In this document: piece after piece, positions 5,301 to 48,842 of the stretch
Numbering within the stretch: the stretch's first letter is position 1
Layout: every line of letters starts with the position of its first letter
DNA from: an uncultured Bacteroidales bacterium
GTDB lineage: Bacteria; Bacteroidota; Bacteroidia; Bacteroidales; DTU049
Direction of reading: 5' to 3'
Assembly: GCA_964388575.1 (NCBI GenBank)
Contig: CAYMAZ010000003.1
Coordinates: 20,637 to 84,636 of the forward strand
Length of the DNA: 64,000 bases
Notes under the pieces: model-generated
What the model was told of the DNA's origin: nothing
The model's input: only the letters and a program-made list of their open reading frames with translations
The model's database searches: none
Translations under genes and position numbers: made by a program

Positions 5301-5967
5301 GAACAATACCACCAGTCGCATCACCATACTGGGCAGGTACACCTCCGGTAATTACAGTAACCTGATCAATCGCACCTTTTGGAAGGCTTGATGAACCACG
5401 AACACGCACTCCGTCAATGTAAAACACAGTACCGTCAGAACGCTGTCCACGAATATTGAGATCTGTGCTTCCGTCATCCTGCGAAAACACACCACCAACT
5501 GTAACGGCAACTGAACCTACATCCCTACCAGGCATTTTTTCAATTTCTTCTCTTGTCAGTGACCCTCCGGAAGCTCCACCGTCTTTTTCGATCAACGGAA
5601 CTTTGTAGTCAATAACTTCAAATGTTGTCAATGTCACCGCTGTTGATTCCATTTCAATATTGAGAAATGTAATTTTATCGGGATTGATCACAACACCCTG
5701 AACAAGAATTGGCTTATACCCTACATATGTTGCCTTGACATCATATCGTCCTGCAGGTATGGGACGAATTGTGTATTCACCTTCAAAATTTGAGGTTGTA
5801 CCTCCAACCTGTCTTCCTGCTGCTTCAGCAATGATATTGCCAAAAGGAATAGGTTCTCCGGTTTCTTTATCAATAAGTTTACCCATAAGCGTGCCGCTGC
5901 TCTGGGCAAAACCGGTTATGCTAAAAAGCATAATAACAATAAATCCACTGAGTAGTTTTCTTAACAT
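2308..5967 (-). CDS. TonB-dependent-receptor-like outer membrane protein with N-terminal carboxypeptidase-regulatory-like domain
   Basis: 1219 aa with a signal peptide. CarboxypepD_reg-like N-terminus (GKLIDKETGEPIPFGNI...YDVKATYVGY). Plug-type motifs NIRGQRSDGTVFYIDGVRV and GGVPAQYGDATGG. Long barrel ending in aromatic ...GIAFNF. Confidence 0.85.
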   Translation of the reverse strand: MLRKLLSGFIVIMLFSITGFAQSSGTLMGKLIDKETGEPIPFGNIIAEAAGRQVGGTTSNFEGEYTIRPIPAGRYDVKATYVGYKPILVQGVVINPDKITFLNIEMESTAVTLTTFEVIDYKVPLIEKDGGASGGSLTREEIEKMPGRDVGSVAVTVGGVFSQDDGSTDLNIRGQRSDGTVFYIDGVRVRGSSSLPKGAIDQVTVITGGVPAQYGDATGGIVQATTRGAAREFGGGVEFVTSQFLDPYGFNLLGFSVMGPLIKGKGTDNTTSLLGFFLSGEIETAKDSRPFHQSIGVYKANDEVLSYLEEQPLRPSGLGFGSFQNGSFVRASDLEKMKTKINDDDLSINLAGKIDVKTNTTTNLSFGGSMNYQNGLAYVHNNSLFNYKNNPQVIENTWRVYGRFAQRFPTDTASKSPISNVFYQIQVDYSKYTSTIQDPNHKDKLFDYGYIGKFTTTKERSYELTDLPTLGLSDVYVHNGFRDLLYWFEGGDLNPVLATYTQRYYDLYPVESGMYANAELVQNGGGLLNGQLPPAIMGLWTSPGSVYGQYSKSDLTQYGFNANASADIGRHSFQFGFQYEQRVDRSYTAAPVGLWYRMRQLANKHIAEIDTANPNLVFDQWGIFQDTVWYDRLYDGASQAFVDYNLRQALDLPVDGLEWLDVDSYDPSIMSIDWFSADELLNEGTSPYVAYYGYDHTGKKLTTKPSFEDFFSKKDEFGNNTREIPAFEPIYMAGYVQDKFAFRDLIFNIGVRVDRFDANQKVLKDPYLLYEAKTVSEVSEFGEHPSNMGSDYVVYVDDVRNPTSIMGYRSEDVWYNSQGIEVTDPTLLRGAGGIAPYLVDPTLTRPTADAFKDYEPQLTVMPRVSFSFPISDEALFFAHYDVLSKRPTSGLRLDPTDYYFITAQGTNLLNNPNLKPELTVDYELGFQQMLNIRSAIKFSAYYKEVRNLVQAYRFSEAYPTSYYSYNNIDFGTVKGLTISYDLRRSANIWIKASYTLQFADGTGSSATSAVSLVRSGQPNLRIINPLDFDRRHAFSLILDYRFQGGKDYNGPTLKRKMKDGSDKIKTIALLENTGVNFTFVGGSGVPYSRSSTIVPTQLGGGTYVLQGSLNGSRLPWQFTINGRIDRDIAIKFGANKKKVTYANIYIEVLNVLNSMNIVSVYRATGNPDDDGYLAAAEYQAGIEAQLDPVAFREQYALKVNSPYNYSLPRRIRLGIAFNF

Positions 5968-6056
5968 AAGGAACCATTTTATTTTTTAAACCATAATATT
6001 TTTCGAGTCGGTAAAATTAGCAATAAATTAATTGTTCGAACAAAAAAAAATTCAAA

Positions 6057-6533
6057 TCATTCATATTTTCTGTTAATAATCTCGGAATAAATAATGGCTT
6101 TTCTAAATTCTTCAATTGTAGAAAGCTCATTTTCAAAATGTTCATAATCGTCTGAGATTACTGAAATATGTTCATTTTGAATTTCTTTATTTTTCTGAGA
6201 TTTAAAAGAAGTTGTTTCCCGGTTTCTGATACTTTGTTTTTTTGCATGTTGTTTCAGCTCATTGTCGAGAAAGGGGGTTGGTTGTGAAATTTTTTCCTGG
6301 TAAAAATCTGAAACAACAGGTTGAGGTTGTTCAAAGTCTGTTTTGAAAAAATCACCTCCGAATTGTTTAAAAATTTCATCAATCGGGCTCACAGATGCAG
6401 AAGTTTGTTGCTCCTGAATTTCTTTTTGTCTTTTTAACTGATCCAGCTTTGCCTGTTGTTGTTTTTTCCCTTTACGTAGCGATGACAAAATCAGAATGAC
6501 AATTATAATAATGTAAACAGCTATTTGCTCCAT
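6057..6533 (-). CDS. Hypothetical membrane-anchored protein, Gln/Lys-rich
   Basis: 158 aa with one N-terminal TM helix (VYIIIIVILILSS) followed by a low-complexity K/Q-rich region. A TAnnTTTG box lies 18 nt upstream. Confidence 0.5.
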   Translation of the reverse strand: MEQIAVYIIIIVILILSSLRKGKKQQQAKLDQLKRQKEIQEQQTSASVSPIDEIFKQFGGDFFKTDFEQPQPVVSDFYQEKISQPTPFLDNELKQHAKKQSIRNRETTSFKSQKNKEIQNEHISVISDDYEHFENELSTIEEFRKAIIYSEIINRKYE

Positions 6534-6550
6534 GTAGATTTGAATTTTTT

Positions 6551-6558
6551 CAAAAATA
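6551..6558 (-). promoter_or_regulatory. Bacteroidota -7 promoter box (TATTTTTG)
   Basis: Plus strand reads caaaaata, an exact TAnnTTTG on the minus strand. It lies 18 nt upstream of the ATG at 6533. Confidence 0.45.
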
Positions 6559-6619
6559 CATTATTATTTAATACAAAATGTATTTGATAAGTAAACGGCA
6601 AAAAAAATTAAGTTTAAGG

Positions 6620-7378
6620 TCAGATATTGTTGATAATTTCAACAATGTAATCGCGTTTTCTTCTTGAGACTGGTATTTCAGTACCATCAGTCATGATTAT
6701 ATAGCCACCATCGGCACGGAGGTAACTTTTAATATATTTAATGTTTAACAGATGTGACTTATGAGAGCGTACAAAACCATAATCACTTAACATTTCATCA
6801 AATTCTTTGAGGGTTCTTGAAACGATTATTCTTTTTCCATCAACAAAATAGAAGTTGGTATAATAACTATCTGACTGGCAGCGTATAATATCATCAGGGT
6901 TAACGACATGATATCCCTCAGAGGTTGATAGTATAATTTTTTTGGGCTTAGGGGTTCCCCCGCTCATATTATGCATCAGAACCTCAAGTCTACGGTTAAT
7001 GTCTCCTGTTTGTGATTTCTCTATAAAACGTTCTGTTGCTTTGATCAGATCCTGTGGATTGACAGGTTTCAACAAATAATCAAGTGCGCTGAACTTTATC
7101 GCTTTGATTGCATATTGATCATATGCTGTTACAAAAATCACATCAAACGATGGTTTTTCAAATTCCTCCAAAAGATTGAAACCACTCCCGTCGGGCATTT
7201 GAATATCCAGAAAAACGAGCTCCGGACGAAGTTCACGAATCTGTTCAACTCCTTCACGGCAGCCTGCTGCTTCTCCTATAATAACGACATCATGACAATA
7301 CTTTTTTAACATTTCTGTAAGCACCTGCCTGGAATTTTTTTCATCATCAATAACGACCGTTTTAATTTTTTTTGTCAT
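6620..7378 (-). CDS. LytTR-family response regulator
   Basis: 252 aa. CheY-like receiver (VVIDDE...LVFLDIQMPDGSG) plus a C-terminal LytTR DNA-binding region (FVRSHKSHLLNIKYI). Confidence 0.9.
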   Translation of the reverse strand: MTKKIKTVVIDDEKNSRQVLTEMLKKYCHDVVIIGEAAGCREGVEQIRELRPELVFLDIQMPDGSGFNLLEEFEKPSFDVIFVTAYDQYAIKAIKFSALDYLLKPVNPQDLIKATERFIEKSQTGDINRRLEVLMHNMSGGTPKPKKIILSTSEGYHVVNPDDIIRCQSDSYYTNFYFVDGKRIIVSRTLKEFDEMLSDYGFVRSHKSHLLNIKYIKSYLRADGGYIIMTDGTEIPVSRRKRDYIVEIINNI

Positions 7379-13831: not shown

Positions 13832-14908
13832 ATGAAAGTTTTACTGGCAATGAGCGGAGGACTGGACAGCAGTGTGGCTGCAATATTACTTCAAAATCAG
13901 GGGTATGAAATTGCCGGTGCCACATTCAGGTCATGGGATTATATCTCTGACAACTGCCTTGCAAAAAACACTGGCTGCTGCAGCATTGATGCCATCCATG
14001 AAGCCCAAACATTTGCTCACAACCTTGGATTTGAACATTATATTCTGGACCTCAGGAAAGAATTCAAAGATGTGGTTATTCAGAATTTCGTAAGTGAATA
14101 TGCAGCTGGTCGAACACCTAACCCGTGTGTACTTTGTAATTCAAAGATCAAATGGGGACTGATGCTGGAAAAAGCTGATGAATTGGGGTGTGACTATATC
14201 GCCACGGGACATTATGCAGGAATCAGAAAGGTGAATAACAGAAATGTGCTTGTCAATGCAACAGATTCACATAAAGACCAGACATATTTTTTGTGGCAGC
14301 TTACATCCGAACAACTAGGTCGGACACTTTTTCCTCTTTACAGTTATACGAAATCACAGATCAGGCAAAAAGCATATCAGAAAGGATTCGTTCAATTGTC
14401 AGAAAAACGCGAAAGTCAGGAAATATGCTTTATCCCTGATAACAATTACAGAAATTTCATCAAAAATGAATTTCCTGAAATGATTAAATCCCTTAAAGAG
14501 GGGGATGTCATCGATGCTACCGGCAGGGTGATAGGAAAACACAAAGGATTTCTGAACTACACCATCGGACAGAGGAAAGGTCTTGGAATTTCAATGGGAG
14601 AGCCTGCCTACGTAACTCATATTGATCCTCAAAGCAATACGATCAGGCTTGGCCAAAAATCAGAGCTACTGACTGATACATTAACAGTCAGAAATTTTAT
14701 TCTGAACAAATATACTGAAATCCCCAAGCAATTTGAGGCTGACGTAAAAATCCGATACAATACACAACGTGTTCAGGCATTGATTGAAAATCAGGGAAAC
14801 ACTTTGTCGGTCAGGTTTGAAAAAAAAGTTTCTGCTGTCACACCCGGGCAATCAGCGGTATTCTATCAGGAAGATGAATGTATCGGCGGGGGCATTATTC
14901 AACAGTAA
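13832..14908 (+). CDS. mnmA: tRNA 2-thiouridine(34) synthase MnmA
   Basis: 358 aa. PP-loop motif LAMSGGLDSSVAA, NPCVLCN and ATGHYA motifs, all typical of MnmA. Confidence 0.93.
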   Translation: MKVLLAMSGGLDSSVAAILLQNQGYEIAGATFRSWDYISDNCLAKNTGCCSIDAIHEAQTFAHNLGFEHYILDLRKEFKDVVIQNFVSEYAAGRTPNPCVLCNSKIKWGLMLEKADELGCDYIATGHYAGIRKVNNRNVLVNATDSHKDQTYFLWQLTSEQLGRTLFPLYSYTKSQIRQKAYQKGFVQLSEKRESQEICFIPDNNYRNFIKNEFPEMIKSLKEGDVIDATGRVIGKHKGFLNYTIGQRKGLGISMGEPAYVTHIDPQSNTIRLGQKSELLTDTLTVRNFILNKYTEIPKQFEADVKIRYNTQRVQALIENQGNTLSVRFEKKVSAVTPGQSAVFYQEDECIGGGIIQQ

Positions 14909-14919
14909 ATCAAAACAAC

Positions 14920-15462
14920 ATGAGTTTAAAAACTGAAGCTGACATTAAAAAGGAATATGTTATGCATATTGCCACAGCCATGCTGGCAGCAGCACGAACA
15001 GCACCAAAAGCACGCGGAACAGACAGGTTATACCTGGCCATCATTGACGGTGATGAGGTTATGAATTTATCACAGAAGATGAAAGAAATTGCTATCAACT
15101 CAGGACCGGCTTTGTTTGAACGGGATGCTGACAATCTACTTCAGGCTGAAGCAGTTGTTATAATGGGAACAACATATGCCTCACAGGGATTGCAATTTTG
15201 CGGATATTGCGGTTTTGAAAATTGTGAGAATAAAAATCGTTACCCTGATGTTCCATGCGTTTTCAACACTGGTGACCTCGGCATTGCAATCGGTTCAGCC
15301 GTAAGTGTTGCTTTGGACAACAGGGTAGACAACAGAATCATGTATTCTGCAGGTTATGTTGCAGTAAAAACAGGACTGACACCCCCTGAAGTCAGGCTTG
15401 CTTATGCCATCCCCCTGAGTGTGTCAGCCAAAAATCCGTTTTTCGACAGAAAACAGATCTGA
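14920..15462 (+). CDS. DUF2148-type ferredoxin-like domain protein
   Basis: About 180 aa starting at MSLKTEAD. Contains APKARG and the Cys cluster CGYCGFENC...PC. I chose the start at the internal ATG just after the mnmA stop. Ends in TGA at 15460-15462. Confidence 0.65.
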   Translation: MSLKTEADIKKEYVMHIATAMLAAARTAPKARGTDRLYLAIIDGDEVMNLSQKMKEIAINSGPALFERDADNLLQAEAVVIMGTTYASQGLQFCGYCGFENCENKNRYPDVPCVFNTGDLGIAIGSAVSVALDNRVDNRIMYSAGYVAVKTGLTPPEVRLAYAIPLSVSAKNPFFDRKQI

Positions 15463-16218
15463 TTAATTTTTTATGAATTTTTCCATTGAAATCAACAGTC
15501 CATCGACATCCATTGCACGAAGAACATATATTCCTGATTGCAAATGTGAACAATCGTATAATACATCTGAAATGGCAGAGAAGTGATCAACCAATCTTCC
15601 TGAGACATCATAAATCTCAATGTTGGTGCTTCTGTCAATAACAATTGTCAAATCACTTTCTACCGGATTTGGGAAAATGCTGAATCCCGGTATTTCCGGA
15701 TTTTCAATGTCAGTTGATGGACAGGCCTGAGCAATACCACCTGCATTTGTGATCTTTGTTCTTAAAATTGTGTTGTCAATAGGCCAGATATCCTTTTCAA
15801 CTATTGCTTTGTTGGGAGCAATCAGAATCACAGTTGGGTAAGCAGATATCGAATAAGTGCTGTTTATGGAAGACCCCTGAGGAGAACCCGGGATCATGGG
15901 ATAATCATATCCCAGAGCTTGCAAAGCAGAAGCAGTATGAGCGGTGCTCACTGCCATAATGACTACATTTCCGGAGTTACATCCGAAATGAGTATAACTA
16001 TCCTGTACGACTGGGTAGGTCGAAGTACATGTGCCTCATCCAGGCATTGTAAACATAAGCACAACATACTTGTTGTCGTCAAGATAGCTGAATAAATTGT
16101 GGGTAACACCATCTGCATCAGCAGCTGTAAAATCCACAGCTGTGTTGAGCGGAGTCTGTGCCCTTAATCCCAACAATATGAGCATCAATAATGCTGAAAA
16201 AATAAAGGTTCTTTTCAT
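15463..16218 (-). CDS. Thioredoxin-fold T9SS cargo protein with one in-frame TGA at the CxxC position (candidate selenoprotein, UxxC; alternatively a nonsense pseudogene)
   Basis: Track ORFs 16036-16218 (signal peptide) and 15463-15957 (cis-Pro loop AYPTVILIAP plus a T9SS C-terminal domain) are in the same frame. The 26 codons between the TGA and the downstream Met are open. The joined read is ...YVVLMFTMPG-TGA-GTCTSTYPVV..., 251 codons in total. Confidence 0.55.
16004..16029 (-). promoter_or_regulatory. Weak hairpin 7 nt downstream of the UGA (possible bacterial SECIS)
   Basis: RNA is UGUA-CUU-CGAC-[CUACCCA]-GUCG-UACA. That is 4+4 bp with a 3-nt bulge, and the apical loop begins 17 nt after the UGA. 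The loop has no G, so the match to the bacterial SECIS pattern is poor. Confidence 0.25.
16036..16038 (-). other. In-frame UGA codon (candidate Sec codon) replacing the first Cys of a CxxC motif
   Basis: Plus strand reads tca at 16036-16038. It is flanked by CCT GGA (PG) upstream and GGC ACA TGT (GTC) downstream on the minus strand. Confidence 0.6.
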
Positions 16219-16292: not shown

Positions 16293-16931
16293 TCAACCTG
16301 CTGGAAAATAAACAGGATGTTTTTCGTTGTAACGAATCAGAAAGTGATAAATCATTTTTTTCTTTCGTTTAGTATTCTGCAATTCATCGTAAAGTTCTCT
16401 ATCATTTTCCATTAAAAACCTGGAAAAATTTCTGTAGTTAAATTCAAATTTTCTGCCTGAATTAAATTCAATTACAAATTCCCTGTTTTCCGCTCGTCTG
16501 TTTGTTCTGTATGCAGGATATCCATAAGAATAATCATAGTAAGGCATTGAATACAGTTCTACTGAATAAAAATGAATCAATGCACCAATGATATGCAACC
16601 TGAAAAAATAACCACTTATCCCCTGCGAGATATAAACATTATTATTTTGTGCGTATCCCCAACATTTTTGGGCATAACATGTTTTCAATACACCTGTGCT
16701 CTCGTCAACACACTGATATTCGAGGAAAACCTCGCCTGAAAACTGAGAACTTCTGACAACTTTAAAATCAGTGATTGAAGGGTTATTTTCTTTGAATTCA
16801 TCAAATGACAGATAAATACCGTTGCGAAAAACAAAGTGTTTGTCAAATTTTTCCTGCTTCAGCAAACCGGTTTCCTGTGCAGTAGCATAACATAATACAA
16901 ACGAAAACATAAAAGATATGAACCACCTCAT
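16293..16931 (-). CDS. Hypothetical secreted protein
   Basis: 212 aa with a signal peptide (FSFVLCYATAQ). I recognise no motif. Confidence 0.5.
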   Translation of the reverse strand: MRWFISFMFSFVLCYATAQETGLLKQEKFDKHFVFRNGIYLSFDEFKENNPSITDFKVVRSSQFSGEVFLEYQCVDESTGVLKTCYAQKCWGYAQNNNVYISQGISGYFFRLHIIGALIHFYSVELYSMPYYDYSYGYPAYRTNRRAENREFVIEFNSGRKFEFNYRNFSRFLMENDRELYDELQNTKRKKKMIYHFLIRYNEKHPVYFPAG

Positions 16932-16942
16932 GTTTCTTATAT

Positions 16943-17338
16943 TCAGGAATTTAGTTTTGCTGTAAACTTTGCCTCATCAATTATATACCTGATATGTCGT
17001 CCTTCTCCGATCAGTCCTTTTTGGTCCCATGCCTTAACTTCAAATTCAAGTTTTTTGCCTTCTACTTTGTCCAGTTTTGCTTCACATCTGACATTCATTC
17101 CGATGGGTGTTGCTTTCAGATGACGGATGCAGACTTCAAAACCAACGGTGGAAAAACCTTCGGGTAGAAACGGCATCACACATCTGTAGCTCGTTCCTTC
17201 CATAAAGGCGATCATTGCAGGTGTTGAAAATACTTCCACAAGACCGGAGTCATAATGTGCTGCAGAATCCCCGGGCATGACTGTTTTCTCTGTTTTGAAT
17301 TCCAGTCCGGGTTGAATTTTTTCGAAATGATGTTCCAT
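16943..17338 (-). CDS. Hotdog-fold thioesterase family protein
   Basis: 131 aa. The size and the pattern (VFSTPAMIAFME...GFEVCIRHLKATPIG...G.H.R) are typical of small hotdog thioesterases. Confidence 0.7.
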   Translation of the reverse strand: MEHHFEKIQPGLEFKTEKTVMPGDSAAHYDSGLVEVFSTPAMIAFMEGTSYRCVMPFLPEGFSTVGFEVCIRHLKATPIGMNVRCEAKLDKVEGKKLEFEVKAWDQKGLIGEGRHIRYIIDEAKFTAKLNS

Positions 17339-17350
17339 TATTCAACAGTT

Positions 17351-17755
17351 TTAAAAATGACAAATCACATTCTGAATTGTATCCGGATGCAAACTCAGTG
17401 CAACTGGGCAGGTTTTTGTTATATTCCTGATAATTGCTTTTTCTTTTTCTGAATAGTTATTGGACGGAAAAAACAGATCGATTTTAACTTCACTGATTCG
17501 GCGTGGATCTGTTCCCATAATTTTGGTCACTTCAGCCCTTGTGCCGGTGATATCAAAACCTGAGCGCTGAGCAAGTATTCCTATGATGGTCATCATGCAG
17601 CTTGCCAGTGATGTTGCCGCAAGATCGGTTGGTGAAAACATTTCTCCTTTTCCCTGATTGTCAGTGGGGGCATCGGTCAGGATGACTGTTCCTGACTGAT
17701 AATGCGTGCATTGTGTTCTAAGATCACCAAGATAGATTACTTCTGACGTTGGCAT
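17351..17755 (-). CDS. OsmC-family protein
   Basis: Begins MPTSEV... and carries OsmC-like motifs (FSPTDLAATSLASCMM ... TKTCPV). I moved the start to the Met at 17755 because an exact -7 box lies 16 nt upstream of it, inside the longer track ORF. Confidence 0.78.
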   Translation of the reverse strand: MPTSEVIYLGDLRTQCTHYQSGTVILTDAPTDNQGKGEMFSPTDLAATSLASCMMTIIGILAQRSGFDITGTRAEVTKIMGTDPRRISEVKIDLFFPSNNYSEKEKAIIRNITKTCPVALSLHPDTIQNVICHF

Positions 17756-17770
17756 AGATAGATTTTTTTT

Positions 17771-17778
17771 CAAAGTTA
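17771..17778 (-). promoter_or_regulatory. Bacteroidota -7 promoter box (TAACTTTG)
   Basis: Plus strand reads caaagtta, 16 nt upstream of the ATG at 17755. Confidence 0.45.
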
Positions 17779-17941
17779 TTGAATTTTTGGGAAATGATCC
17801 CGGTAATTTGCAAATGAGTGAGGACTTTTTTGAACCATAATTGAGCCACATTTGAACCAAATAAGGCATATAAAGTTATATAAGAATTTCATATAAGATA
17901 CTTTGTTTTATTACTGAGAGTGTCTAGAGGTAAGGCATTTT

Positions 17942-21049: not shown

Positions 21050-22144
21050 ATGAGATTTCTATTTTTCTCCATTTGCATAATTTTACACGGTGTTGTAAAC
21101 ATATCTGAAGTGTATTCCCAAACCAACACACCAAAATATTCCAATGAATTTCTTTCAATTGGGATCGGAGCCCGTTCCATGGCAATGTCTGGTTCTGTTG
21201 CAGCCACTGTTGACGATGCTTCTGCCGGATACTGGAACCCTTCAAGATTGCATCTTCTCAATGGTGAAAGACAGCTGTGTCTGATGCATGCTGAGTATTT
21301 TGCCGGGATTGCGAAATACGACTACGGCAGTCTTGGCCTGAAACTTGACGACAGTTCAGCCCTTGCTGTTTCCTTTATCCGATTTGGTGTGGACAACATT
21401 CCCAACACTACAGATCTTGTTGATGGACAAGGCAACATTCATTATGACAGGATTACCACTTTTTCACTGGCTGATATGGCATTTCTTATTTCCTACGGAA
21501 GAAAAACACAAATTGAAAATCTTTCACTTGGTGGAAGTGTTAAAATCATTAGACGAAAAATTGGTGATTTTGCAGGTGCCTGGGGCTTTGGTCTTGACTT
21601 TGCAACATCCTATTCAACAGGGCCATGGCTTTTGGCAGCTGTGGCAAGAGACGCAACTTCAACTTTTAATGCATGGAGTTTCAATCTTTCAGACCGGATG
21701 AAAGAAGTATTTACAATCACCGGAAACATCATTCCTGAAAACTCACTGGAAATTACCTTACCGTCGCTTCTCCTTGCAGCAGGCAGACAGATTGATATTT
21801 CTCCTTCTTTTGCAATCTTGCCTGAAGCAGGGCTTCATGTTACTTTCGACGGAAAAAGAAACGTCCCTGTCAAAACGAATGTGTTCAGTATCTCACCACA
21901 TCTTGGCATTGAAACATCGTACAAGCAATTTATCTACTTCAGAATCGGAATTGGCAATATTCAGCAGGAATACAACACAGACGGAAAAAAAATAACATCT
22001 TTTCAGCCCAATATGGGCATTGGGATCAACATTCAAGACAGATTTTCAATTGATTATGCGCTTACTGATATCGGAGATCAATCAATGGCTCTCAATTCGA
22101 ATATTTTTTCTCTCCGCATGTCATTTAACCGTGGTCAAAAATAG
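21050..22144 (+). CDS. PorV/PorQ-family outer membrane beta-barrel protein (second copy, PorV2-like)
   Basis: 364 aa. FLSIGIGARSMAMSGSVAATVDDASAGYWNPS parallels the PorV motif LIAPDARSGALGDAGVAISPDANSMHYNPA at 47.7 kb. It lies directly upstream of a C25-like gene. Confidence 0.72.
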   Translation: MRFLFFSICIILHGVVNISEVYSQTNTPKYSNEFLSIGIGARSMAMSGSVAATVDDASAGYWNPSRLHLLNGERQLCLMHAEYFAGIAKYDYGSLGLKLDDSSALAVSFIRFGVDNIPNTTDLVDGQGNIHYDRITTFSLADMAFLISYGRKTQIENLSLGGSVKIIRRKIGDFAGAWGFGLDFATSYSTGPWLLAAVARDATSTFNAWSFNLSDRMKEVFTITGNIIPENSLEITLPSLLLAAGRQIDISPSFAILPEAGLHVTFDGKRNVPVKTNVFSISPHLGIETSYKQFIYFRIGIGNIQQEYNTDGKKITSFQPNMGIGINIQDRFSIDYALTDIGDQSMALNSNIFSLRMSFNRGQK

Positions 22145-22150
22145 TTGAAT

Positions 22151-25100
22151 ATGCAGAAAAAACCTGAATTGTTTATATTTATTATTCTGACATTCCTACT
22201 GTTTCTCCCCGGAACAAATCAGGCACAATATTCAAATAGCTGGATAAATTTTAATCAGAAATACTACAGAATCCCAATTGTTCAGGACGGAATATACAGA
22301 ATAGGGTTGCCGGCACTTACAGCAGCAGGACTAATACTTACCTCGATAGACCCCAGACAAATTCAAATATTTCATGAAGGAGAAGAGCAGTACATCTATG
22401 TGCACGGAGAAAATGACGGGATCTTCCACCCGAATGATTATATTGAATTTTACGGAAAGCGAAACACTGCATCAGCTGATATTCCCATGTTTTCAAATCC
22501 TGAACATGTTGCAAACCCAAATTACAGCTTTTTCAATGATACTGCTTGTTACTTTCTAACAGTTACATCGGGAATCAACAACAGAAGAATTGTCAGAGAA
22601 ACAGACAATAATTACAATGCCTACACACCGGTTCCCTATTTCTGGAAGACTTCGAGACAAGATTATACAAGCACATATTTCGGGGGAAGACCCAATTCAT
22701 CAGGAACAACAGATTTTGAATACTCTGATGCAGAAGGCTGGTTTGATGTTGCCTTTGGAATAAATTCTCTAACACCTGGTGTTGCTGTTACAGTTTCCAA
22801 AAACATACCCACTCCACAGGCTTTTACTGCAGGTCCATCAGCAAGTGTAGACTTGAAAGTAATCGGAGCCAGCAACTATATCGGATTAAATCCTGATCAC
22901 CATCTTATCATTCAGTTTCCCGGAAAAACAATTGACACACTGTATGAAGGATACACCACACTTCATATACAGTCTTCCATCAACCCTATTCAACTGGGAA
23001 CATCAAACACAACTTTTACATTTACATTACCCAATGATCTTGGAAGCGCCGCTGACAGGAATACAATTGCATATATTCAAGTCAAATATCCCCACACAAT
23101 GAACATGGAAAATCAGCAAAAAATGTTCATTCAGGTCCCTGATCAGTCAGGACTAAAATCTCAGCTGCAACTGACCAATATCAATGTGACACAGGGAGAC
23201 AGTATACTTGCTTTTGATCTGACAAACAAAAAACGTATCAATATGGTGCCTTATGGTCCGGCATTTAAGTCTGTTATTTTTAACAACGGGAGTGACAAAG
23301 ATGTTTTTGTGACAACAGGCAGCCAGATTATCAACATACAAACCATTACTCCTGTTAATCAACAGTATAGCAGCGGAACATTTACAAACTATTCCGACTT
23401 CCAGTTTTCAGAAACCGATTACATCATCATAACCCATTCATCACTGATGGCAGGAGCAACTCAATATGCAGGTTACAGAACTTCCAAAGGATACAATGTG
23501 TTGCTTGCAGATGTGCAGACTTTATATGATCAGTTTGGTTACGGAATCCGGAAGCATCCCATGGCAGTAAAGAATTTCATTTCGTTTGCCCTTGATCATT
23601 TTGCAGACACCATTCACGGACTTTTTCTTATCGGGAAAGGCTACAAAGCAGGAGAAAATCCATCATACAGAAATAATCCATCAATTTATTCCCAAACACT
23701 TCTCCCTTCCATGGGAAATCCACCTTCTGACCTGCTTTTTTCAACAAAGATCAAGGTAAATTCACTGGTTCCTGAAATACCCACAGGACGATTAAGTGCC
23801 AAAACCAATCTCAACGTCACTTCTTATCTCAATAAAATTATTGAGTATGAAACCGCACAATCAGCACCCTACAATATTTCCAATCCAATGGAAAAGGAAT
23901 GGATGAAAAAAGCACTGCATTTTGCTGGTGGATCAAATGCCAGTCAGGGAGCATTACTGGAATCCTTTTTAAATGAATACAGAGATTCTCTCGTAGATCC
24001 TCATTTTGGGGCCACTGTTAGAACATTCAAGAAAAATACCACCGACCCAATGCAGCAGATTATTTCAGACTCACTAAAAAATCTCATCAACAATGGTGTA
24101 TCAATATTGAACTTCTTTGGTCATGCAGCAGGTATTGGTTTTGACATCAGTATAGATAATCCTTCTGAATACAGCAACTATAAAAAATACTTTTTCATCC
24201 TGGCAAATTCGTGTCTTTCAGGCGATCTGTTTCAACAAACCCAAACTTCAAGTGAAGTTTTTGTACTGATTGAAAACAAAGGTGCAATCGGATATCTAGG
24301 ATCAACAACCAATGCACTTGCAGACCTGCTACATATTTACTCGTCAAATTTTATAGGTGGCATTTCCTATTCAAATTATGGTAAATCTGTTGGGAGCAGT
24401 ATACAGAAAGCCATCGCCAGGATTGACAACCCTTCCAATCCGTTTATTAAAGAAATTTGTTATTCAATGACATTGCACGGAGATCCTGTTCTATGCATCA
24501 ATCCTCATCCACTGCCAGACTTTGTAATGCACCCTCCATCAATTTTGTTCAATCCTCCTGTTGTTACAACCGAAACAGATTCATTTGAAGTTATTGTAAT
24601 TTCTAAAAATCTTGGAAAATCTGTTGTTGATAATTTTGCAATTGAGCTCACACGAATGTATCCGGACAACTCAAGCGAAACTTATGTTCAGTCCATTCCT
24701 GCAACAATTAATACCGATACCGTCATCTTTACGGTTCCGGTTGATTTATCAAAAGGTGTTGGAATCAATTCATTTACTGCAACTCTTGATGCTTATTTCA
24801 ATATTGAAGAAATTACAGAAACCAATAATTCAGCTTCAAAACAACTTTTGATAACATCTTCTGACGTCATTCCAATTTATCCATATGAATTTGCTGTTGT
24901 TTCTGACAATGTCATAATACTGACTGCATCTACCGGTAACCCCTTTGCTCCATCAAACACGTATATTTTTGAAATTGATACAACTGACGTATTTAACAGT
25001 CCTTTTAAACAAACCGGAACAGTTGTTTCTTCCGGAGGAATCATAGAATGGGCTCTTCCTTTTTCCATGTCAACAATGCCCGACAGTACTGTTTATTACT

Positions 25101-42426: not shown

Positions 42427-43434
42427 TTAAAAAGTTGGACAATTTATCGGCCTGATTCTTCTTGCTTTCTGAGGACAGTCAAACTGGAAAGTAAGTGAAA
42501 ATTCATGAGAGCCGCCTGTGGCATTTGACAATCTTGAAACTGTAAGATCATAACTGTATCCAAATTTGAAAGTCTCCTGTTGAAGACCGACAAGAAATAT
42601 CATTGCATCTGCATTGCTGTCATCAAAATTAAAGAACGGCCCGGCATGTCTGTACCATAATCCGCCTACAAAAGGATACTTGTTCAGATACAATCCAAGG
42701 TTCAATTGTTGAAAATTCTGCTGTTTCATATACATGATATTAGGAGACAGCGTTGTTTCTTCAACAGTACGTTTTCTCGCATTTGAATTTTCAATACTGA
42801 TAATTGTTCCCATATGTGCTGTGAGTCTGATAGGCATTCTGTAATATGACAGGAATGCTTCATTGGGTCTGGTAAGATGATGTGCAGCAAATCCCACAAA
42901 AAACTTCTCATGAGACATCACCATTCCCGCTGAAAAATCAGCAAGAGATTTTCTTAGTTCGTCTGGAAGTTGTTCACTGGTATTCTGAACAGGTCCCCAT
43001 TTGGGATCATACTGATCCGGAAAACGCAATTTGTCCCATTCAAGACTTCTCTGAAAATATGTTGCCTGAAGTGCAGCATTAATTGAAATTTCCTTTGATA
43101 CCTCCAGTCTGTATGAGTAAATCCCACTCACCTGGGTTGTATTCAGAATTCCTGCTCCTGCTCTGTCAGTGTTAACCATTACCCCGATTGCTCCGTTCAA
43201 TGCATAAATATGCTGATCATATGATGCATTATATGTTACAAATGTGCCGAGAATTGATGGCCATTGATTTCTGAAATTTAAAATCAATCTTGGGCAGATG
43301 ACTGAGCCTGCCATTGCGGGATTCAAATACAACGGATTTGCATAAAACTGCGAAAAATGTGGATCCTGTGCCTGACTCTTTTCAGCAATCAACAACAACC
43401 CGGCTATTAATAACATGCTTAATCTTTTAACCAT
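42427..43434 (-). CDS. PorP/SprF-family T9SS membrane protein
   Basis: 335 aa. AQDPHFSQFYANPLYLNPAMAG is the family signature. Confidence 0.87.
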   Translation of the reverse strand: MVKRLSMLLIAGLLLIAEKSQAQDPHFSQFYANPLYLNPAMAGSVICPRLILNFRNQWPSILGTFVTYNASYDQHIYALNGAIGVMVNTDRAGAGILNTTQVSGIYSYRLEVSKEISINAALQATYFQRSLEWDKLRFPDQYDPKWGPVQNTSEQLPDELRKSLADFSAGMVMSHEKFFVGFAAHHLTRPNEAFLSYYRMPIRLTAHMGTIISIENSNARKRTVEETTLSPNIMYMKQQNFQQLNLGLYLNKYPFVGGLWYRHAGPFFNFDDSNADAMIFLVGLQQETFKFGYSYDLTVSRLSNATGGSHEFSLTFQFDCPQKARRIRPINCPTF

Positions 43435-43478
43435 TTGCTATATGTTTTAAACAATGCTTCTCATTGAAATATTGGAGA

Positions 43479-43486
43479 CAAAAGTA
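43479..43486 (-). promoter_or_regulatory. Bacteroidota -7 promoter box (TACTTTTG)
   Basis: Plus strand reads caaaagta, 45 nt upstream of the ATG at 43434. Confidence 0.4.
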
Positions 43487-43556
43487 AACAAATTTCATTA
43501 TATACATTGAAAATTTTTCAAACTTTCAAAATTTATTTAAAATTTAAATTACACCG

Positions 43557-43583
43557 TACTTCAGATTTTATACTTCAGATTTT
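43557..43583. repeat. Tandem direct repeat TACTTCAGATTTT x2 (14-nt period)
   Basis: The copies lie at 43557-43569 and 43571-43583, in the divergent porP/porU intergenic region. Confidence 0.6.
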
Positions 43584-43663
43584 TAATTTAGTTACGCTTG
43601 GAGTGAATTTTTTCCATTTTTCAAAAATAATTTGTGCATATTTGCGTTTTTGTTGATACCACT

Positions 43664-46600
43664 ATGAAAATCCACTTTATGTTCAATTTGATCAGCAAAT
43701 ATTTTTTGCTTGCTTGTTTTGTTGTTTTAAACAACACTCCAATTTCAGCTCAGGATTTTACTGTTGCGATCAATTGGGGGGCTCTTAAAACAGTATCTTA
43801 TGAATCTCCTCACACAGCCAGGGCAATTTGGTTTGAAAATGCAGAATACAGATCATTTCCCACAATTCCATTATTTTCTATAAATATTGGTATTACTGAT
43901 CCGCATCTTGAAATCACTGCTGAAATTTCAGACGATGAATACATCAACCTGACCCCAGAAGAGATATTGATTGTTGAACAATCTGGGTTTAATCCTGAAA
44001 AAGATATCAAAATCGTTGTTCAGCATAAAACAATTCGGAAACAACGATTTTCTGAAATTTTGCTGACACCCTTCAGGATCAGTTCTTCTGACGGGACACT
44101 TCAAAAGCTGGTTTCATGTACAATAGAAATGAACTATTCTTTTGCTATGAACACATCTGATTCTCAGAAATCGAATCAAAAACAACTGAAAACCAATCAA
44201 TCTGTTCTTTCAGATGGAACATTTCACAAAATTTCTGTTACCCAACCAGGAATATACAGACTTACCGGACAACATCTGATAGATATGGGTTACGATCTAA
44301 CTGAAATTGACCCAAGAAATATCAGAATTTTCGGAAACGGGGGTCGTATGCTTCCTGAGGGAAACGATGTCCCGCGAATTGATGATTTGTATGAAAATGC
44401 TCTTTACGTCTTTGGTGAAAACGACGGTGTTTTCAATACCAGTGACTACATCCTGTTTTATGCACCCGGACCCAATTCATGGTCATTCAATCCTGCAACA
44501 GGTGAATATATGAGTTCAATCAACCGATACAATGATAAATCATTTTATTTCTTCAATATCGGAGAGAGTCAGGGAAAACGCATGAACGTTGTAAATCACA
44601 TGAATGAAACGCCCTCCAACACCACCGGAATATTTCTGGATCGTCTGACCTATGAAAATGAAACCTACAACCTGATTAAGAGTGGCAAGGAATGGTTTGG
44701 CGATGTTTTTGATCTGAGTCTGAATCAAAGTTTCAGTTTTGCACTCCCAAACATTCACGCCGATTCCTGCATTAAAGTCCGGGTGATGATGGCAGCCAGG
44801 GCATCGGGGGCAACCTCAGCATCTGTCAGTGTCGGGTCAGCTTCGACTAGTATCGGGTTTTCAGGAGTTACAGGATACAACTCTGATTATGCAAAACAGG
44901 GAACGGGTCTGATTTGCGCAACTCCATCATCAAACATCAGTGTCAGTATTACATATAATAAGAACAACCTTAATGATGCCAAAGCATGGTTGAACAAGAT
45001 CAACATTAATGCCTGGCGCAATCTGACAATGACAGGAAATCAAATGCATTTCCAGAATCCGCTGATTGATGACCCTGGAAATTTTGTCAGATATCAAATT
45101 GCAACATCAAATACAATCACTGTACTTGACATTACAAATCCTCTTGAACCATCAATAATTCAGGGAAATCTGAACGGGCAGATCTATTCGGTCATTGCAG
45201 AGGCCGATCAGGGAAAAGAATTTATTGCATTCAATGGTCTTAGTTTTCTGTCACCATTATTAGAAGAAAAAGTTGCAAATCAAAACCTGCACGGAATGTC
45301 AAACATTGACTATCTGATTGTTACTCATCCGTTATTTTCTGAACAAGCAAACAAAATCGGTCAATTTCACAATAATCTCAACGGATTATCCTTTGTAGTT
45401 GTGACTCCTCAAATGATCTATAATGAATTTTCTTCAGGTTCTCAGGATCCTTCTGCCATACGTGATTTTGTGAAAATGTTTTATGACAGAGCAACAAACC
45501 AGGAAGAAATGCCCAAATATTTGCTCTTTTTTGGCCGTGCATCATACGATTACAAAAACAGAATTGCTGATAACACCAATTTTGTTCCCACCTTTCAAAG
45601 CAGTGAATCTCTCAATCCCACCCGGTCTTATGCTTCGGATGATTTTTTCGGACTACTTGACAACGGAGAAGGTTTTGAGTGTAACGGGCATCTTGACATC
45701 GGAATTGGAAGACTCCCTGCAACAACAGTCGAGGAAGCTGAGAATCTGATGAGCAAAATTTTCCGATATCACGAAAAAACCAATTTCAACGATTTTGAAA
45801 ACACCTGCAATTTTATTCAGAACACACCCAACCTTTCCGACTGGAGAAACTGGGTTACTTTTATAAGTGATGATGGAAACACGAATCTGCATTTTATTCA
45901 GTCTGAAGGAATTTCAACAAATCTTGGTAACAATTATCTCCATCTGAACATTGAAAAAATCCATCTTGATGCCTATCCACAAAACAGCACTCCTGGGGGG
46001 GAAAGAGCTCCAGCCGTGAATGAAGCAATAAACCGCCGGATGCAACTTGGCTGTCTGATTATGAATTACACCGGACACGGAGGTGAAGTTGGCTGGGCAC
46101 ATGAAAGAATTCTTGAACTTTCCGACATCAACGGTTGGGAAAACCATTACAACATGCCATTATTTATCACTGCAACCTGTGAATTCAGCCGATTTGATGA
46201 TCCCGGAAGGATTGCTGCCGGAGAAATGGTCCTTACAAATCCAAAAGGTGGTGGAATTGCACTGTTTTCAACTACACGACTCGCATATTCTACGTTTAAT
46301 GAAAATCTCAACAGAAGTGTTTACAAAGTTGCTTTTGAAAATAACAACGGGGTTTATCCTACTCTTGGAGAAATTCTCAGTTTTGCCAAAACCGATAACG
46401 GTTCAAACGAATTTATTAGAAATTTTATTCTGCTTGGTGATCCGGCAATGCGACTCGCCTATCCTGAAAACAGAATCATCACAACATCAATCAACGGACA
46501 ACCTGCAGGCATTGATCCGGATACAATTTCTGCTTACGGCTTTGTAACTGTAGAAGGGTATATTGCTGATATTCAAAACAACAAGTTAACTGATTTCAAC

Positions 46601-47545
46601 GGAACCATCACACCGACTGTTTTTGACAAGGCTTCAACACTTTCAACTCTTGGTAGCGACTCAGAAAGTTTTCCTGCCACTTTTAAGCTTCAGAAAAACA
46701 TCATTTATAAAGGAAAGGCAAGTGTTGAAAATGGAGAATTTTCATTTTCATTTTATGTTCCAAAAGACATCAACTATTCTTATGATTACGGAAAAATCAG
46801 TTATTATGCAGAAAACGGGCAAACAGATGCAACGGGATATTTCAATCAGTTTTACGTGGGCGGCTCAGAGCAGAATAATACCGGCGACAACGCTGGGCCG
46901 GAAATAAAACTGTTTATGAATGATATTACCTTTACCGACGGAGGCACAACAGGTGAAAACCCTGTACTTATAGCCATATTGCGCGATTCATCAGGAATCA
47001 ATACACTCGGTTCAGGAATTGGTCATGACATTACACTTATTCCTGATAACTCAGGGGAAGTCATTGTGATGAATGACTATTACGAAGCAGACCTTGACTC
47101 ATACAGAAGCGGCAGGGTTATTTATCCTTTTCATAATCTTGCTGAAGGGCCACATTCTGTCAGTTTCAAAGCCTGGGATGTATTTAACAATTCTTCAGAA
47201 GCATATCTGACATTCTATGTTGCAGCATCACACGAAGCCATTATCAGGAATCTGATAAATTTTCCAAACCCGTTCAATGAGTTTACTGACTTCATTTTTG
47301 AACACAATCAATCCTGTGCTCCCTATGACATTGTGATTGATATCTACAATGCTGCCGGACAACATGTTTCACGTATTGAATCTGCACAGCAATCCATAGG
47401 ATACGAATCAGAACCAATTCGCTGGTATGGTTTATCTCATGACGGAAATCCGCTTGCTTCAGGCATTTATGTATATTCTATTTCAATGAAAACCTGCGAA
47501 GGAGGCACTGCACAAAGAAGCAGCAGACTTGTCATTATTAAATAA
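43664..47545 (+). CDS. porU: T9SS sortase PorU (peptidase C25 family)
   Basis: About 1293 aa. Gingipain-like His/Cys motifs NYTGHGGEVGW and FITATCEFSRFDD. C-terminal domain FPNPFNEFTDFIF...GIYVYSI. porV follows directly. The track start is a GTG ten codons upstream of the ATG. Confidence 0.87.
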   Translation: MKIHFMFNLISKYFLLACFVVLNNTPISAQDFTVAINWGALKTVSYESPHTARAIWFENAEYRSFPTIPLFSINIGITDPHLEITAEISDDEYINLTPEEILIVEQSGFNPEKDIKIVVQHKTIRKQRFSEILLTPFRISSSDGTLQKLVSCTIEMNYSFAMNTSDSQKSNQKQLKTNQSVLSDGTFHKISVTQPGIYRLTGQHLIDMGYDLTEIDPRNIRIFGNGGRMLPEGNDVPRIDDLYENALYVFGENDGVFNTSDYILFYAPGPNSWSFNPATGEYMSSINRYNDKSFYFFNIGESQGKRMNVVNHMNETPSNTTGIFLDRLTYENETYNLIKSGKEWFGDVFDLSLNQSFSFALPNIHADSCIKVRVMMAARASGATSASVSVGSASTSIGFSGVTGYNSDYAKQGTGLICATPSSNISVSITYNKNNLNDAKAWLNKININAWRNLTMTGNQMHFQNPLIDDPGNFVRYQIATSNTITVLDITNPLEPSIIQGNLNGQIYSVIAEADQGKEFIAFNGLSFLSPLLEEKVANQNLHGMSNIDYLIVTHPLFSEQANKIGQFHNNLNGLSFVVVTPQMIYNEFSSGSQDPSAIRDFVKMFYDRATNQEEMPKYLLFFGRASYDYKNRIADNTNFVPTFQSSESLNPTRSYASDDFFGLLDNGEGFECNGHLDIGIGRLPATTVEEAENLMSKIFRYHEKTNFNDFENTCNFIQNTPNLSDWRNWVTFISDDGNTNLHFIQSEGISTNLGNNYLHLNIEKIHLDAYPQNSTPGGERAPAVNEAINRRMQLGCLIMNYTGHGGEVGWAHERILELSDINGWENHYNMPLFITATCEFSRFDDPGRIAAGEMVLTNPKGGGIALFSTTRLAYSTFNENLNRSVYKVAFENNNGVYPTLGEILSFAKTDNGSNEFIRNFILLGDPAMRLAYPENRIITTSINGQPAGIDPDTISAYGFVTVEGYIADIQNNKLTDFNGTITPTVFDKASTLSTLGSDSESFPATFKLQKNIIYKGKASVENGEFSFSFYVPKDINYSYDYGKISYYAENGQTDATGYFNQFYVGGSEQNNTGDNAGPEIKLFMNDITFTDGGTTGENPVLIAILRDSSGINTLGSGIGHDITLIPDNSGEVIVMNDYYEADLDSYRSGRVIYPFHNLAEGPHSVSFKAWDVFNNSSEAYLTFYVAASHEAIIRNLINFPNPFNEFTDFIFEHNQSCAPYDIVIDIYNAAGQHVSRIESAQQSIGYESEPIRWYGLSHDGNPLASGIYVYSISMKTCEGGTAQRSSRLVIIK

Positions 47546-47578
47546 TCCTTCAAAACAATATTGATTAAAAAAAATCGT

Positions 47579-47586
47579 TAATTTTG
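47579..47586 (+). promoter_or_regulatory. Bacteroidota -7 promoter box (TAATTTTG)
   Basis: Exact TAnnTTTG ending 21 nt before the porV ATG. Confidence 0.4.
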
Positions 47587-47606
47587 CACTCTTAATTTCT
47601 GAAAAC

Positions 47607-48842
47607 ATGATCATCGGAAAAAAATTAAACCACCTGCAACAGATATTTACAGTATCTTTCATTTTCATTGCTTGCAGTTTTCGAATTTCTGCCCAGCCAA
47701 ATTACAATGAAATATTAGGACAGGATAAGTTGAACGCCATCACAACTTCTGTTCCCTTTCTTCTGATTGCACCTGATGCCAGAAGCGGAGCACTTGGAGA
47801 TGCAGGTGTTGCAATTTCTCCTGATGCAAACTCAATGCACTACAATCCCGCCAAATACGCTTTTGCTGAAAACGAATTTGGTGTTGCGATGTCATACAGT
47901 CCATGGCTCAGAGGTCTTGTCAACGATATCAGCCTTGCATATCTTGCAGGATACAAACGTCTCGGAAACGGACAGACCGTTGCTGCATCACTGAGATATT
48001 TTTCTCTTGGAGACATCATTTTCACAGATAAGGTTGGTGAAGTTATCGGACAGTTCAGACCAAATGAATTTGCAGTTGATCTGGCGTACGCCAGAAAATT
48101 TTCAGACAATATTTCAGGAGCTGTTGCCATCCGGTATATCAATTCAAATCTCACCGGTGGTATCTTTGTCAACGGGGCTCAGTCCAAAGTCGGACAATCC
48201 ATTGCTGCTGACGTTGCTGTGTATTATTCAAAAGAAATAAGCTATGGTGAAACTCCCGGATTCTTTTCATTTGGTGCAAATATTTCAAATATCGGTGCAA
48301 AAATTTCATACACAGAAAATCTTGACAAGGATTTTATTCCAATCAATTTAAAACTCGGACCAGCCTTCACGTTTAATTTTGATCAGTATAATACAGTCAC
48401 TTTTATGTTTGACATCAACAAACTGCTGGTTCCTACGCCCCCTGTTTATGCTCGTGACAGTCTTGGAAGACCGATTATTGACAATGACGGAAATTATGAA
48501 ATTGCAAAAGGTAAAGATCCTGATCGCTCCGTTGTTTCAGGTATGCTTGGTTCATTTTCAGACGCACCGGGAGGATTTGAAGAAGAGCTAAAAGAATTCA
48601 ACTATTCGGTGGGACTTGAATACTGGTATGATCAGCAGTTTGCTATTCGCGGAGGATTCTTCTATGAACATCCGCACAAGGGCAACCGTAAATATGTCAC
48701 TCTTGGTGCTGGCTTCAGACTGAATGTGTTCGGACTGGACTTTGCCTATCTCATCCCGCTCGAACAAAGACATCCCCTTGAAAACACACTCCGCTTTACA
48801 CTCACCTTCGACTTTGAAGCGTTTAAAGAACTGGGTAATTAA
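47607..48842 (+). CDS. porV: T9SS outer membrane shuttle protein PorV (LptO)
   Basis: 411 aa. Contains LLIAPDARSGALGDAGVAISPDANSMHYNPAKYAF. It is a beta-barrel lying directly downstream of porU. Confidence 0.87.
   Translation: MIIGKKLNHLQQIFTVSFIFIACSFRISAQPNYNEILGQDKLNAITTSVPFLLIAPDARSGALGDAGVAISPDANSMHYNPAKYAFAENEFGVAMSYSPWLRGLVNDISLAYLAGYKRLGNGQTVAASLRYFSLGDIIFTDKVGEVIGQFRPNEFAVDLAYARKFSDNISGAVAIRYINSNLTGGIFVNGAQSKVGQSIAADVAVYYSKEISYGETPGFFSFGANISNIGAKISYTENLDKDFIPINLKLGPAFTFNFDQYNTVTFMFDINKLLVPTPPVYARDSLGRPIIDNDGNYEIAKGKDPDRSVVSGMLGSFSDAPGGFEEELKEFNYSVGLEYWYDQQFAIRGGFFYEHPHKGNRKYVTLGAGFRLNVFGLDFAYLIPLEQRHPLENTLRFTLTFDFEAFKELGN

Follow-up and report, generated by a model that had tools for sequence, protein, structure and literature searches.

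The 64,000-nucleotide stretch of contig CAYMAZ010000003.1 from an uncultured Bacteroidales bacterium (assembly GCA_964388575.1), hereafter the window, very probably carries, as judged from comparative sequence analysis, a genuine selenocysteine-encoding gene, and we consider it highly likely, with only a shade less confidence, that the complete explanation holds as well, namely that a single gene at this locus encodes a secreted selenoprotein, with selenocysteine (Sec) inserted at an in-frame UGA and the product exported. The minus-strand frame 16218..15463 comprises 251 codons, ends with a TAA (15465..15463) and is interrupted by a single internal stop, the TGA of codon 61 (16038..16036), around which the translation reads ...YVVLMFTMPG-TGA-GTCTSTYP.... 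A mechanical list of open reading frames (ORFs) splits the gene into ORFs of 60 amino acids (16218..16036) and 164 amino acids (15957..15463) that share this frame. The product would consist of a signal peptide, a ResA/TlpA-like thioredoxin fold and a type-A C-terminal sorting domain (CTD) of the type IX secretion system (T9SS), in that order (Table 1).

In all domain searches, a Cys was put in place of the TGA. The Pfam family AhpC-TSA then matches residues 25-140, across the TGA, with 35.3 bits (cut-off 26), Thioredoxin_8 matches residues 49-138 with 30.2 bits (cut-off 27), and Redoxin falls slightly under its threshold (24.8 versus 26.6 bits); the fold class tested was the ResA/TlpA-like thioredoxin fold (PF00578 / PF13905 / PF08534, cd02966). 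At the C-terminus, Por_Secre_tail covers residues 181-237 (39.9 bits, cut-off 27) and NCBIfam TIGR04183 covers residues 181-251 (36.2 bits, cut-off 23); none of the selenoprotein-specific NCBIfam models matches the window protein. The signal peptide, MKRTFIFSALLMLILLGLRA, was recognized by inspection: MKRT is followed by a hydrophobic core and by a cleavage site between LRA and Q, beyond which the protein continues with QTPL, and Gln21, the residue just after the predicted signal peptidase I site, is invariant across the family.

The nearest solved structure by sequence is Bacillus subtilis ResA, whose C-E-P-C motif aligns with U-G-T-C of the window protein and whose cis-Pro aligns with Pro128. 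The TGA column corresponds to Cys74 of ResA and to the first Cys of the CxxC motif in about 77 Cys-type homologues, and the distance from codon 61 to Pro128 is 67 residues. Cys64, Cys80, Pro128 and Cys166 are invariant in an alignment of 15 sequences, and Cys80 and Cys166 are nearly invariant in one of 52. A structural view is provided by the AlphaFold (AF2) model of P0004, a Cys homologue that is 42% identical to the window protein and stands in for it here; the mean predicted local distance difference test score (pLDDT) of this model is 90, Cys61 lies at the N-terminus of helix 62-77, and the comparison with ResA in Foldseek yields a target template modelling (TM) score of 0.86 at a root-mean-square deviation of 1.8 A. 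Thus, what a sequence-only reading of this DNA had proposed, namely that the two ORFs are a single gene split by the TGA alone, that this TGA occupies the nucleophilic position of a CxxC motif about 67 residues ahead of the cis-Pro, and that the C-terminus is a T9SS sorting domain, is borne out by the single frame, by domain matches that span the TGA, by the alignment with ResA and the Cys homologues, and by two sorting-domain models above their cut-offs.

A peroxiredoxin proper (an AhpC/TSA peroxidase) was considered and rejected: the sequence lacks PxxxTxxC, which marks the fold as ResA/TlpA-like and not that of a peroxiredoxin, the site F-T-M-P-G-U-G-T-C being of the CxxC type, and the best structural and sequence matches are to ResA/TlpA. 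A separate feature of the active-site strand concerns position 55 (16056-16054, minus strand). In 51 aligned Cys-type homologues, this position always holds the buried Asp of the xIDFF strand, which the more distant Sec-type members retain, with the exception of L060b, which has Glu, whereas all Sec orthologues aligned from the window's clade have Met (VxMFT); the replacement of Asp55 by Met may reflect altered proton handling after Sec became fixed.

The first line of evidence is the conservation of the TGA. The comparison DNA comprised the loci behind shortened protein calls along with related loci from GTDB genomes and JGI and ENA metagenomes; a metagenome scan gave 12 loci, among them L096, which proved decisive. 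In a database of 5.8 billion proteins, the nearest relatives are all shortened calls of 164-173 amino acids, and full-length entries, with Cys, first appear at 44% identity or less. At the DNA level, the TGA is found at the active-site column in all 12 orthologues (48-88% protein identity) and also in nine more distant family members, which include one from a Marinifilum metagenome-assembled genome (MAG), the tandem pair of L060 and two multidomain proteins of 800 residues; in these nine, the frame past the TGA remains open for 190-740 codons, with a T9SS sorting domain at its end. Over the family, the column holds TGA in 21 of 98 distinct sequences and Cys in the remaining 77, and among these 98 we found neither TAA or TAG at this column nor a second in-frame stop. 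This Sec/Cys pairing, with the TGA kept in every orthologue, is the replacement that had been postulated for the site. The residues between Sec and Cys vary among the orthologues (GT, SS, PS, AS, PT, ST, GS). A rough neighbour-joining tree combined with Fitch parsimony implies at least six switches between Cys and Sec, the window's clade being Sec throughout. The two forms also occur next to each other: in L010 (5227-6024 and 6125-6907), a Cys-type copy (CLVC) lies directly upstream of the Sec-type orthologue, and L060 carries its two Sec-type copies in tandem (3001-4029 and 4138-5163).

The second line of evidence is the physical association of the family with the machinery of Sec insertion. 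In L096, a 181.6-kb ENA contig, an orthologue 57% identical to the window protein (KTN-TGA-ASC, with an extra repeat domain and a T9SS CTD) is located directly downstream of an island that consists of tRNA-Sec (ARAGORN; Rfam RF01852, 69.7 bits), selA, selB, a SclA-like cysteine desulfurase, YedF (TIGR03527), a small ORF and SelD (TIGR00476, 366 bits). In L044, a Bacteroidota MAG, selA and selB (TIGR00475, 315 bits) are followed 93 nt on by a Sec-type family member, and the closest relatives of this SelB include many proteins named as derived from Bacteroidales MAGs. Other Bacteroidales contigs have the same island followed by a split fdhA. There is, in addition, a circumstantial co-occurrence of the SelB P0174 and the orthologue P0012 in sibling ENA datasets (ERZ27252299/ERZ27252304) and sibling JGI datasets (Ga0334891/Ga0334888). 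A Cys-type T9SS family member in L069 (1824-2612) overlaps the 3' end of selB (70-1827) by 4 nt, so that linkage of the family to the Sec island extends to a member that does not use Sec.

The third line of evidence is a hairpin within the coding sequence, downstream of the TGA, that resembles a selenocysteine insertion sequence (SECIS). Numbered from the U of the UGA, the hairpin has a lower stem of nt 7-11 / 34-38, a 3-nt bulge, an upper stem of nt 15-20 / 28-33 and an apical loop of 7 nt (nt 21-27; CUACCCA in the window, YUACCCR across the set), which falls in the range expected of a SECIS, with the apical loop approximately 16-37 nt from the UGA. RNAalifold recovers this structure unaided from the orthologue alignment. 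Paired cells amount to 82-85%, compared with 23-45% in slid controls; for 11 distinct sequences, the value is 82%, compared with 25-45% when the partners are slid by 1-3 columns. Four pairs stay paired despite changes on both sides, and several of the compensatory changes are at third codon positions; the pair 24/42, for example, reads U-A in the window and A-U in L001, its closest relative, with G-C in most other sequences, and the pair 27/39 switches from G-C to A-U. Without correction for phylogeny, Sec-type sequences form on average 4.35 of the six pairs at fixed positions, versus 2.41 in Cys-type sequences, and have a minimum free energy of -9.7 versus -7.0 kcal/mol, likewise uncorrected.

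In the fdhA genes of Bacteroidales (L107, L108), too, an in-frame TGA precedes a hairpin, whose 6-bp stem (nt 15-20 / 28-33) and 7-nt loop (nt 21-27) occupy positions identical to those of the family hairpin; fdhA and the family gene are both located immediately downstream of the tRNA-Sec/selA/selB/.../selD island. The loop sequences differ, GGGACUG in fdhA versus YUACCCR here, and so do the products, FdhA being a cytoplasmic molybdoenzyme whereas the protein described here is predicted to be secreted. The fdhA genes near these islands (L107 12114-14828; L108 15981-18701) are also called in two pieces, of 356 and 527-533 amino acids, split at the TGA (...DHCARL-TGA-HS...), which is the same annotation error.

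Several observations weigh against the interpretation of the locus as a secreted selenoprotein gene. All Sec-type carriers are metagenome assemblies, with no isolate among them. None of selA, selB, selD or tRNA-Sec was found within the 64-kb window by a search that included ARAGORN, Rfam, Pfam and NCBIfam models applied to 41 of the 45 large ORFs, and the SelA, SelB and SelD proteins of E. coli as tblastn queries; the window contains no tRNA of any kind. The sequence downstream of the TGA of the window, folded alone, is no better than shuffles (z = -0.13), and no other hairpin of the set is as weak as that of the window, which has four contiguous pairs plus a U.U mismatch and -4.5 kcal/mol. 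The loop YUACCCR lacks the G that is usual at the start of bacterial SECIS loops, and no Rfam SECIS family is matched either at the gathering threshold in the window or at E <= 10 around the TGA. The loop and the stem also encode the conserved Thr-Tyr-Pro-Val-Val, so that their conservation is partly protein-driven. Finally, export, removal of the CTD, attachment to the surface and enzymatic activity are predicted from family membership only. The non-canonical loop and the missing Rfam match would appear to weaken the label of an E. coli-type SECIS and not the proposed function as a SECIS; the check for a SECIS that the sequence-only reading had suggested came out in favour, with a covarying hairpin of SECIS geometry.

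Among the alternatives, the one that fares best, improbable as it appears, is that the UGA is passed without Sec, by a near-cognate Cys or Trp tRNA or by programmed read-through, or that it functions mainly as a terminator and yields a 60-residue peptide. The lack of visible Sec genes in the window and the weak hairpin of the window, devoid of the canonical loop G, are compatible with this possibility. It is, however, at odds with the full set of Sec genes and tRNA-Sec immediately upstream of the orthologue in L096, with the selA-selB pair that adjoins another Sec-type member in L044, with the spacing of the hairpin, which is exactly that of the local fdhA SECIS, and with the position of the codon at the classic site of Sec/Cys exchange; as for termination, it would leave a signal peptide with 40 further residues that have no fold.

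A pseudogene, or an error of sequencing or assembly, in which a Cys codon mutated or was misread, is very improbable. Admittedly, one base change suffices to turn TGT or TGC into TGA, and the gene callers of every database split this gene. Nevertheless, the same TGA is present in independent assemblies from NCBI, JGI, ENA and Logan, an identical gene is found on a second contig (L105), the read set SRR8925802 likewise contains an identical copy, and the TGA recurs in orthologues down to 48% identity and in the nine distant members, never as TAA or TAG and never accompanied by a second stop. Furthermore, purifying selection, for which a test downstream of the TGA had been proposed, is equal on the two sides of it: for the window and L001, an unsaturated pair, the ratio of nonsynonymous to synonymous differences (pN/pS) takes values of 0.12 before the TGA, 0.15 over the next 105 codons and 0.13 in the remainder (the CTD). 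Nor is there much to recommend the notion, hardly credible on present evidence, of two separate genes, one for a 60-residue secreted peptide and the other for a 164-residue protein starting from Met88, even if all pipelines call the locus this way and the databases annotate it so. The 26 codons that separate the TGA from the ATG of the 164-residue ORF (TYPVVQDSYTHFGCNSGNV) rank with the most strongly conserved parts of the protein, whereas Met88 itself is not conserved, being Leu, for example, in L005; the shorter product would lack the signal peptide, strand 1, the active site and helix 1 and yet keep a T9SS sorting domain, which requires prior export through the Sec translocon. Taken together, the conserved TGA, the open frame and the equal selection on both sides of the TGA rule out a pseudogene as well as a sequencing error and a pair of independent genes. 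The least plausible alternative of all, genome-wide reassignment of TGA (for example, to Trp or Gly), founders on the fact that TGA closes 14 of the 45 large ORFs of the window, including the three (15460-15462, 27248-27250 and 63149-63151) that had been cited earlier in support of its being an ordinary stop, so that TGA is not reassigned throughout the genome, on the single plausible in-frame TGA in 64 kb (a scan for other recoded genes in the window yielded, apart from 16038, frame or antisense noise only), and on the Cys that aligns with it in the homologues.

Under the scenario that we favour, a selenoprotein gene with a canonical mechanism of recoding, the UGA of codon 61 would be read as Sec by SelB bound to Sec-tRNA(Sec), with SelB presumably recruited by the hairpin whose upper stem starts 15 nt past the U of the UGA; the identity of the codon and the hairpin emerge from the comparison of sequences, and the recruitment of SelB is what we infer from them. 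The preprotein would leave the cytoplasm through the Sec translocon, be cleaved before Gln21 and, once in the periplasm, adopt a ResA/TlpA-like thioredoxin fold, in which the active site Sec61-Gly-Thr-Cys64, at the N-terminus of helix 1, would face cis-Pro128. The type-A sorting domain would then pass the protein to the T9SS and, by analogy with other T9SS cargo, PorU would remove this domain, with the enzyme either released or anchored at the surface. The likely activity would be that of a selenol/thiol oxidoreductase in which the selenolate attacks and Cys64 resolves.

Table 1. Coordinates of the predicted selenoprotein gene, its elements and the T9SS genes of the window
Feature	Position	Strand	Basis
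Complete selenoprotein gene, 251 codons including the Sec codon	15463..16218	-	translation, domain matches; layout common to orthologues
Signal peptide, codons 1-20 (MKRTFIFSALLMLILLGLRA)	16159..16218	-	by inspection: basic n-region, hydrophobic core, Ala-Gln junction
ResA/TlpA-like thioredoxin-fold domain, residues 25-140	15799..16146	-	Pfam, alignment with PDB ResA, homologue model
UGA codon 61, predicted selenocysteine, first position of UxxC	16036..16038	-	Cys alignment; TGA in 12 orthologues and 9 distant members
UxxC motif U-G-T-C, codons 61-64	16038..16027	-	
SECIS-like hairpin within coding sequence	16001..16032	-	RNAalifold, covariation, fdhA geometry
cis-Pro128	15837..15835	-	ResA alignment
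T9SS type-A C-terminal sorting domain, residues 181-251	15466..15678	-	PF18962 and TIGR04183
PorP/SprF	42427..43434	-	NCBIfam TIGR03519, 241 bits
Sortase PorU	43634..47545	+	NCBIfam NF033707, 1273 bits
PorV	47607..48842	+	NCBIfam NF033710, 505 bits

The genes for PorU, PorV and PorP, recognized with NCBIfam models (Table 1) and Pfam, are present in the window, where PorP/SprF and PorV flank the canonical PorU, so the organism has the T9SS that the CTD addresses; this span of machinery genes (42427..48842) is context, 27-33 kb away from the selenoprotein gene and not part of it. The window also encodes a second PorU-type sortase, a PorU2-like protein of 1701 amino acids (22145-27250, plus strand; NF052324, 701 bits) that is preceded by an unannotated 364-amino-acid ORF (21050-22144), as well as a small T9SS cargo protein of 227 amino acids with Por_Secre_tail (55125-55808, minus strand) and, nearby, a protein of the CAP/cysteine-rich secretory family (53675-54424, plus strand). 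In L003, a run of four adjacent calls on the minus strand (4401-7008; 85, 499, 69 and 228 amino acids), three of which match Por_Secre_tail, may represent another fragmented or recoded T9SS cargo gene.

Most orthologues are syntenic with the window, in the order OsmC, FlK thioesterase, a 212-amino-acid hypothetical protein, the selenoprotein gene, DUF2148 and mnmA. The upstream neighbours in the window, all on the minus strand (16293-16931, 16943-17338 and 17351-17869), encode an OsmC-like protein, an FlK/4HBT thioesterase and the 212-amino-acid protein, which has no family match; in related loci, rubrerythrin and MsrAB are encoded within a few kb. This neighbourhood, with OsmC here and rubrerythrin and MsrAB elsewhere, hints at oxidative stress in an anaerobe and suggests that the function of the protein lies in extracytoplasmic redox or oxidative-stress chemistry. 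On the other side, the gene for the DUF2148 (ferredoxin-domain) protein (14878-15462, plus strand) converges on the selenoprotein gene with zero bases between them, its TGA stop (15460-15462) abutting the TAA at 15463-15465. The convergent arrangement is kept in most orthologous loci (the window, L001, L003, L005, L008 and L105); the start of the DUF2148 ORF at 14878 overlaps mnmA and is probably placed too far upstream, the orthologues having 166-180 amino acids.

How does this protein compare with known systems? The ResA/TlpA/DsbE/StoA family (B. subtilis ResA, PDB 1SU9/1ST9) has the same fold and, like the protein described here, is exported past the cytoplasmic membrane; the nucleophile of that family is Cys, here replaced by Sec at the UGA, and the Asp55 of the Cys forms has given way to Met in the window's clade. 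CcdA/DsbD feeds ResA and TlpA, which are reductants anchored in the membrane or located in the periplasm, whereas the protein of the window, with its cleavable signal peptide and T9SS sorting domain, is predicted to reside outside the outer membrane, where we know of no dedicated electron donor. With T9SS type-A cargo of Bacteroidota, such as the gingipains of Porphyromonas gingivalis, it shares the N-terminal signal peptide and the C-terminal Por_Secre_tail/TIGR04183 domain; the difference is that the domain carried here is a predicted selenocysteine redox enzyme.

Thioredoxin-fold UxxC proteins are the classic case of bacterial selenoproteins. Both UxxC thioredoxin-fold and TlpA-like selenoproteins have already been catalogued (PMC13188914). 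In the catalogued TlpA-like proteins, the first Cys of CxxC, within a domain of the TlpA/AhpC-TSA type, has likewise been exchanged for Sec, the Cys homologues outnumber the Sec forms, and the prediction was made by the same comparative criteria; as far as their descriptions go, none of these entries has a T9SS sorting domain or is Bacteroidota-specific. A survey published in 2006 detected no Sec-decoding trait in Bacteroidetes (PMC1794560), and the selenoprotein database and method papers that we examined mention neither Bacteroidota nor the T9SS. In the searchable full-text literature, nothing relevant was retrieved for selenoprotein or selenocysteine combined with type IX secretion, T9SS or Por_Secre_tail, in line with the sequence-only reading, which was aware of no described selenoprotein routed through this system. 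What we have here is thus a T9SS-sorted Bacteroidales subfamily within a known kind of UxxC selenoproteins; new are its predicted location, outside the cell or on its surface, and the fact that it is repeatedly found in physical linkage with the Sec island.

A bolder hypothesis, which we consider unlikely and offer as speculation, is that these proteins found a Bacteroidota-specific class of selenoenzymes that are displayed or released by the T9SS and handle selenium or other chalcogens outside the cell, for example, in the reductive capture of selenite or selenotrisulfides, or in defence against extracellular peroxides or disulfides. If true, such a role would explain the location of family members behind the selA-selB-yedF-selD island in L096 and L044, and also the Cys form that overlaps selB in L069.

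In NCBI, JGI, ENA and Logan, the Sec-type genes that we looked up are called as an ORF of 60-62 amino acids and a product of 164-173 amino acids, the latter unnamed or, in JGI, labelled 'hypothetical protein', so that a whole subfamily of selenoproteins is invisible in annotation. The SECIS-like element, with its canonical spacing and non-canonical loop, helps in refining bacterial SECIS predictors, and the switches between Cys and Sec, along with the side-by-side Sec and Cys paralogues of L010, provide a natural system for comparing Sec and Cys catalysis. For the Bacteroidales, the present finding adds a lineage-specific selenoprotein that, as far as our literature search shows, would be the first predicted to exit via the T9SS, and raises the question of the role and the recycling of a selenol/thiol oxidoreductase beyond the outer membrane.

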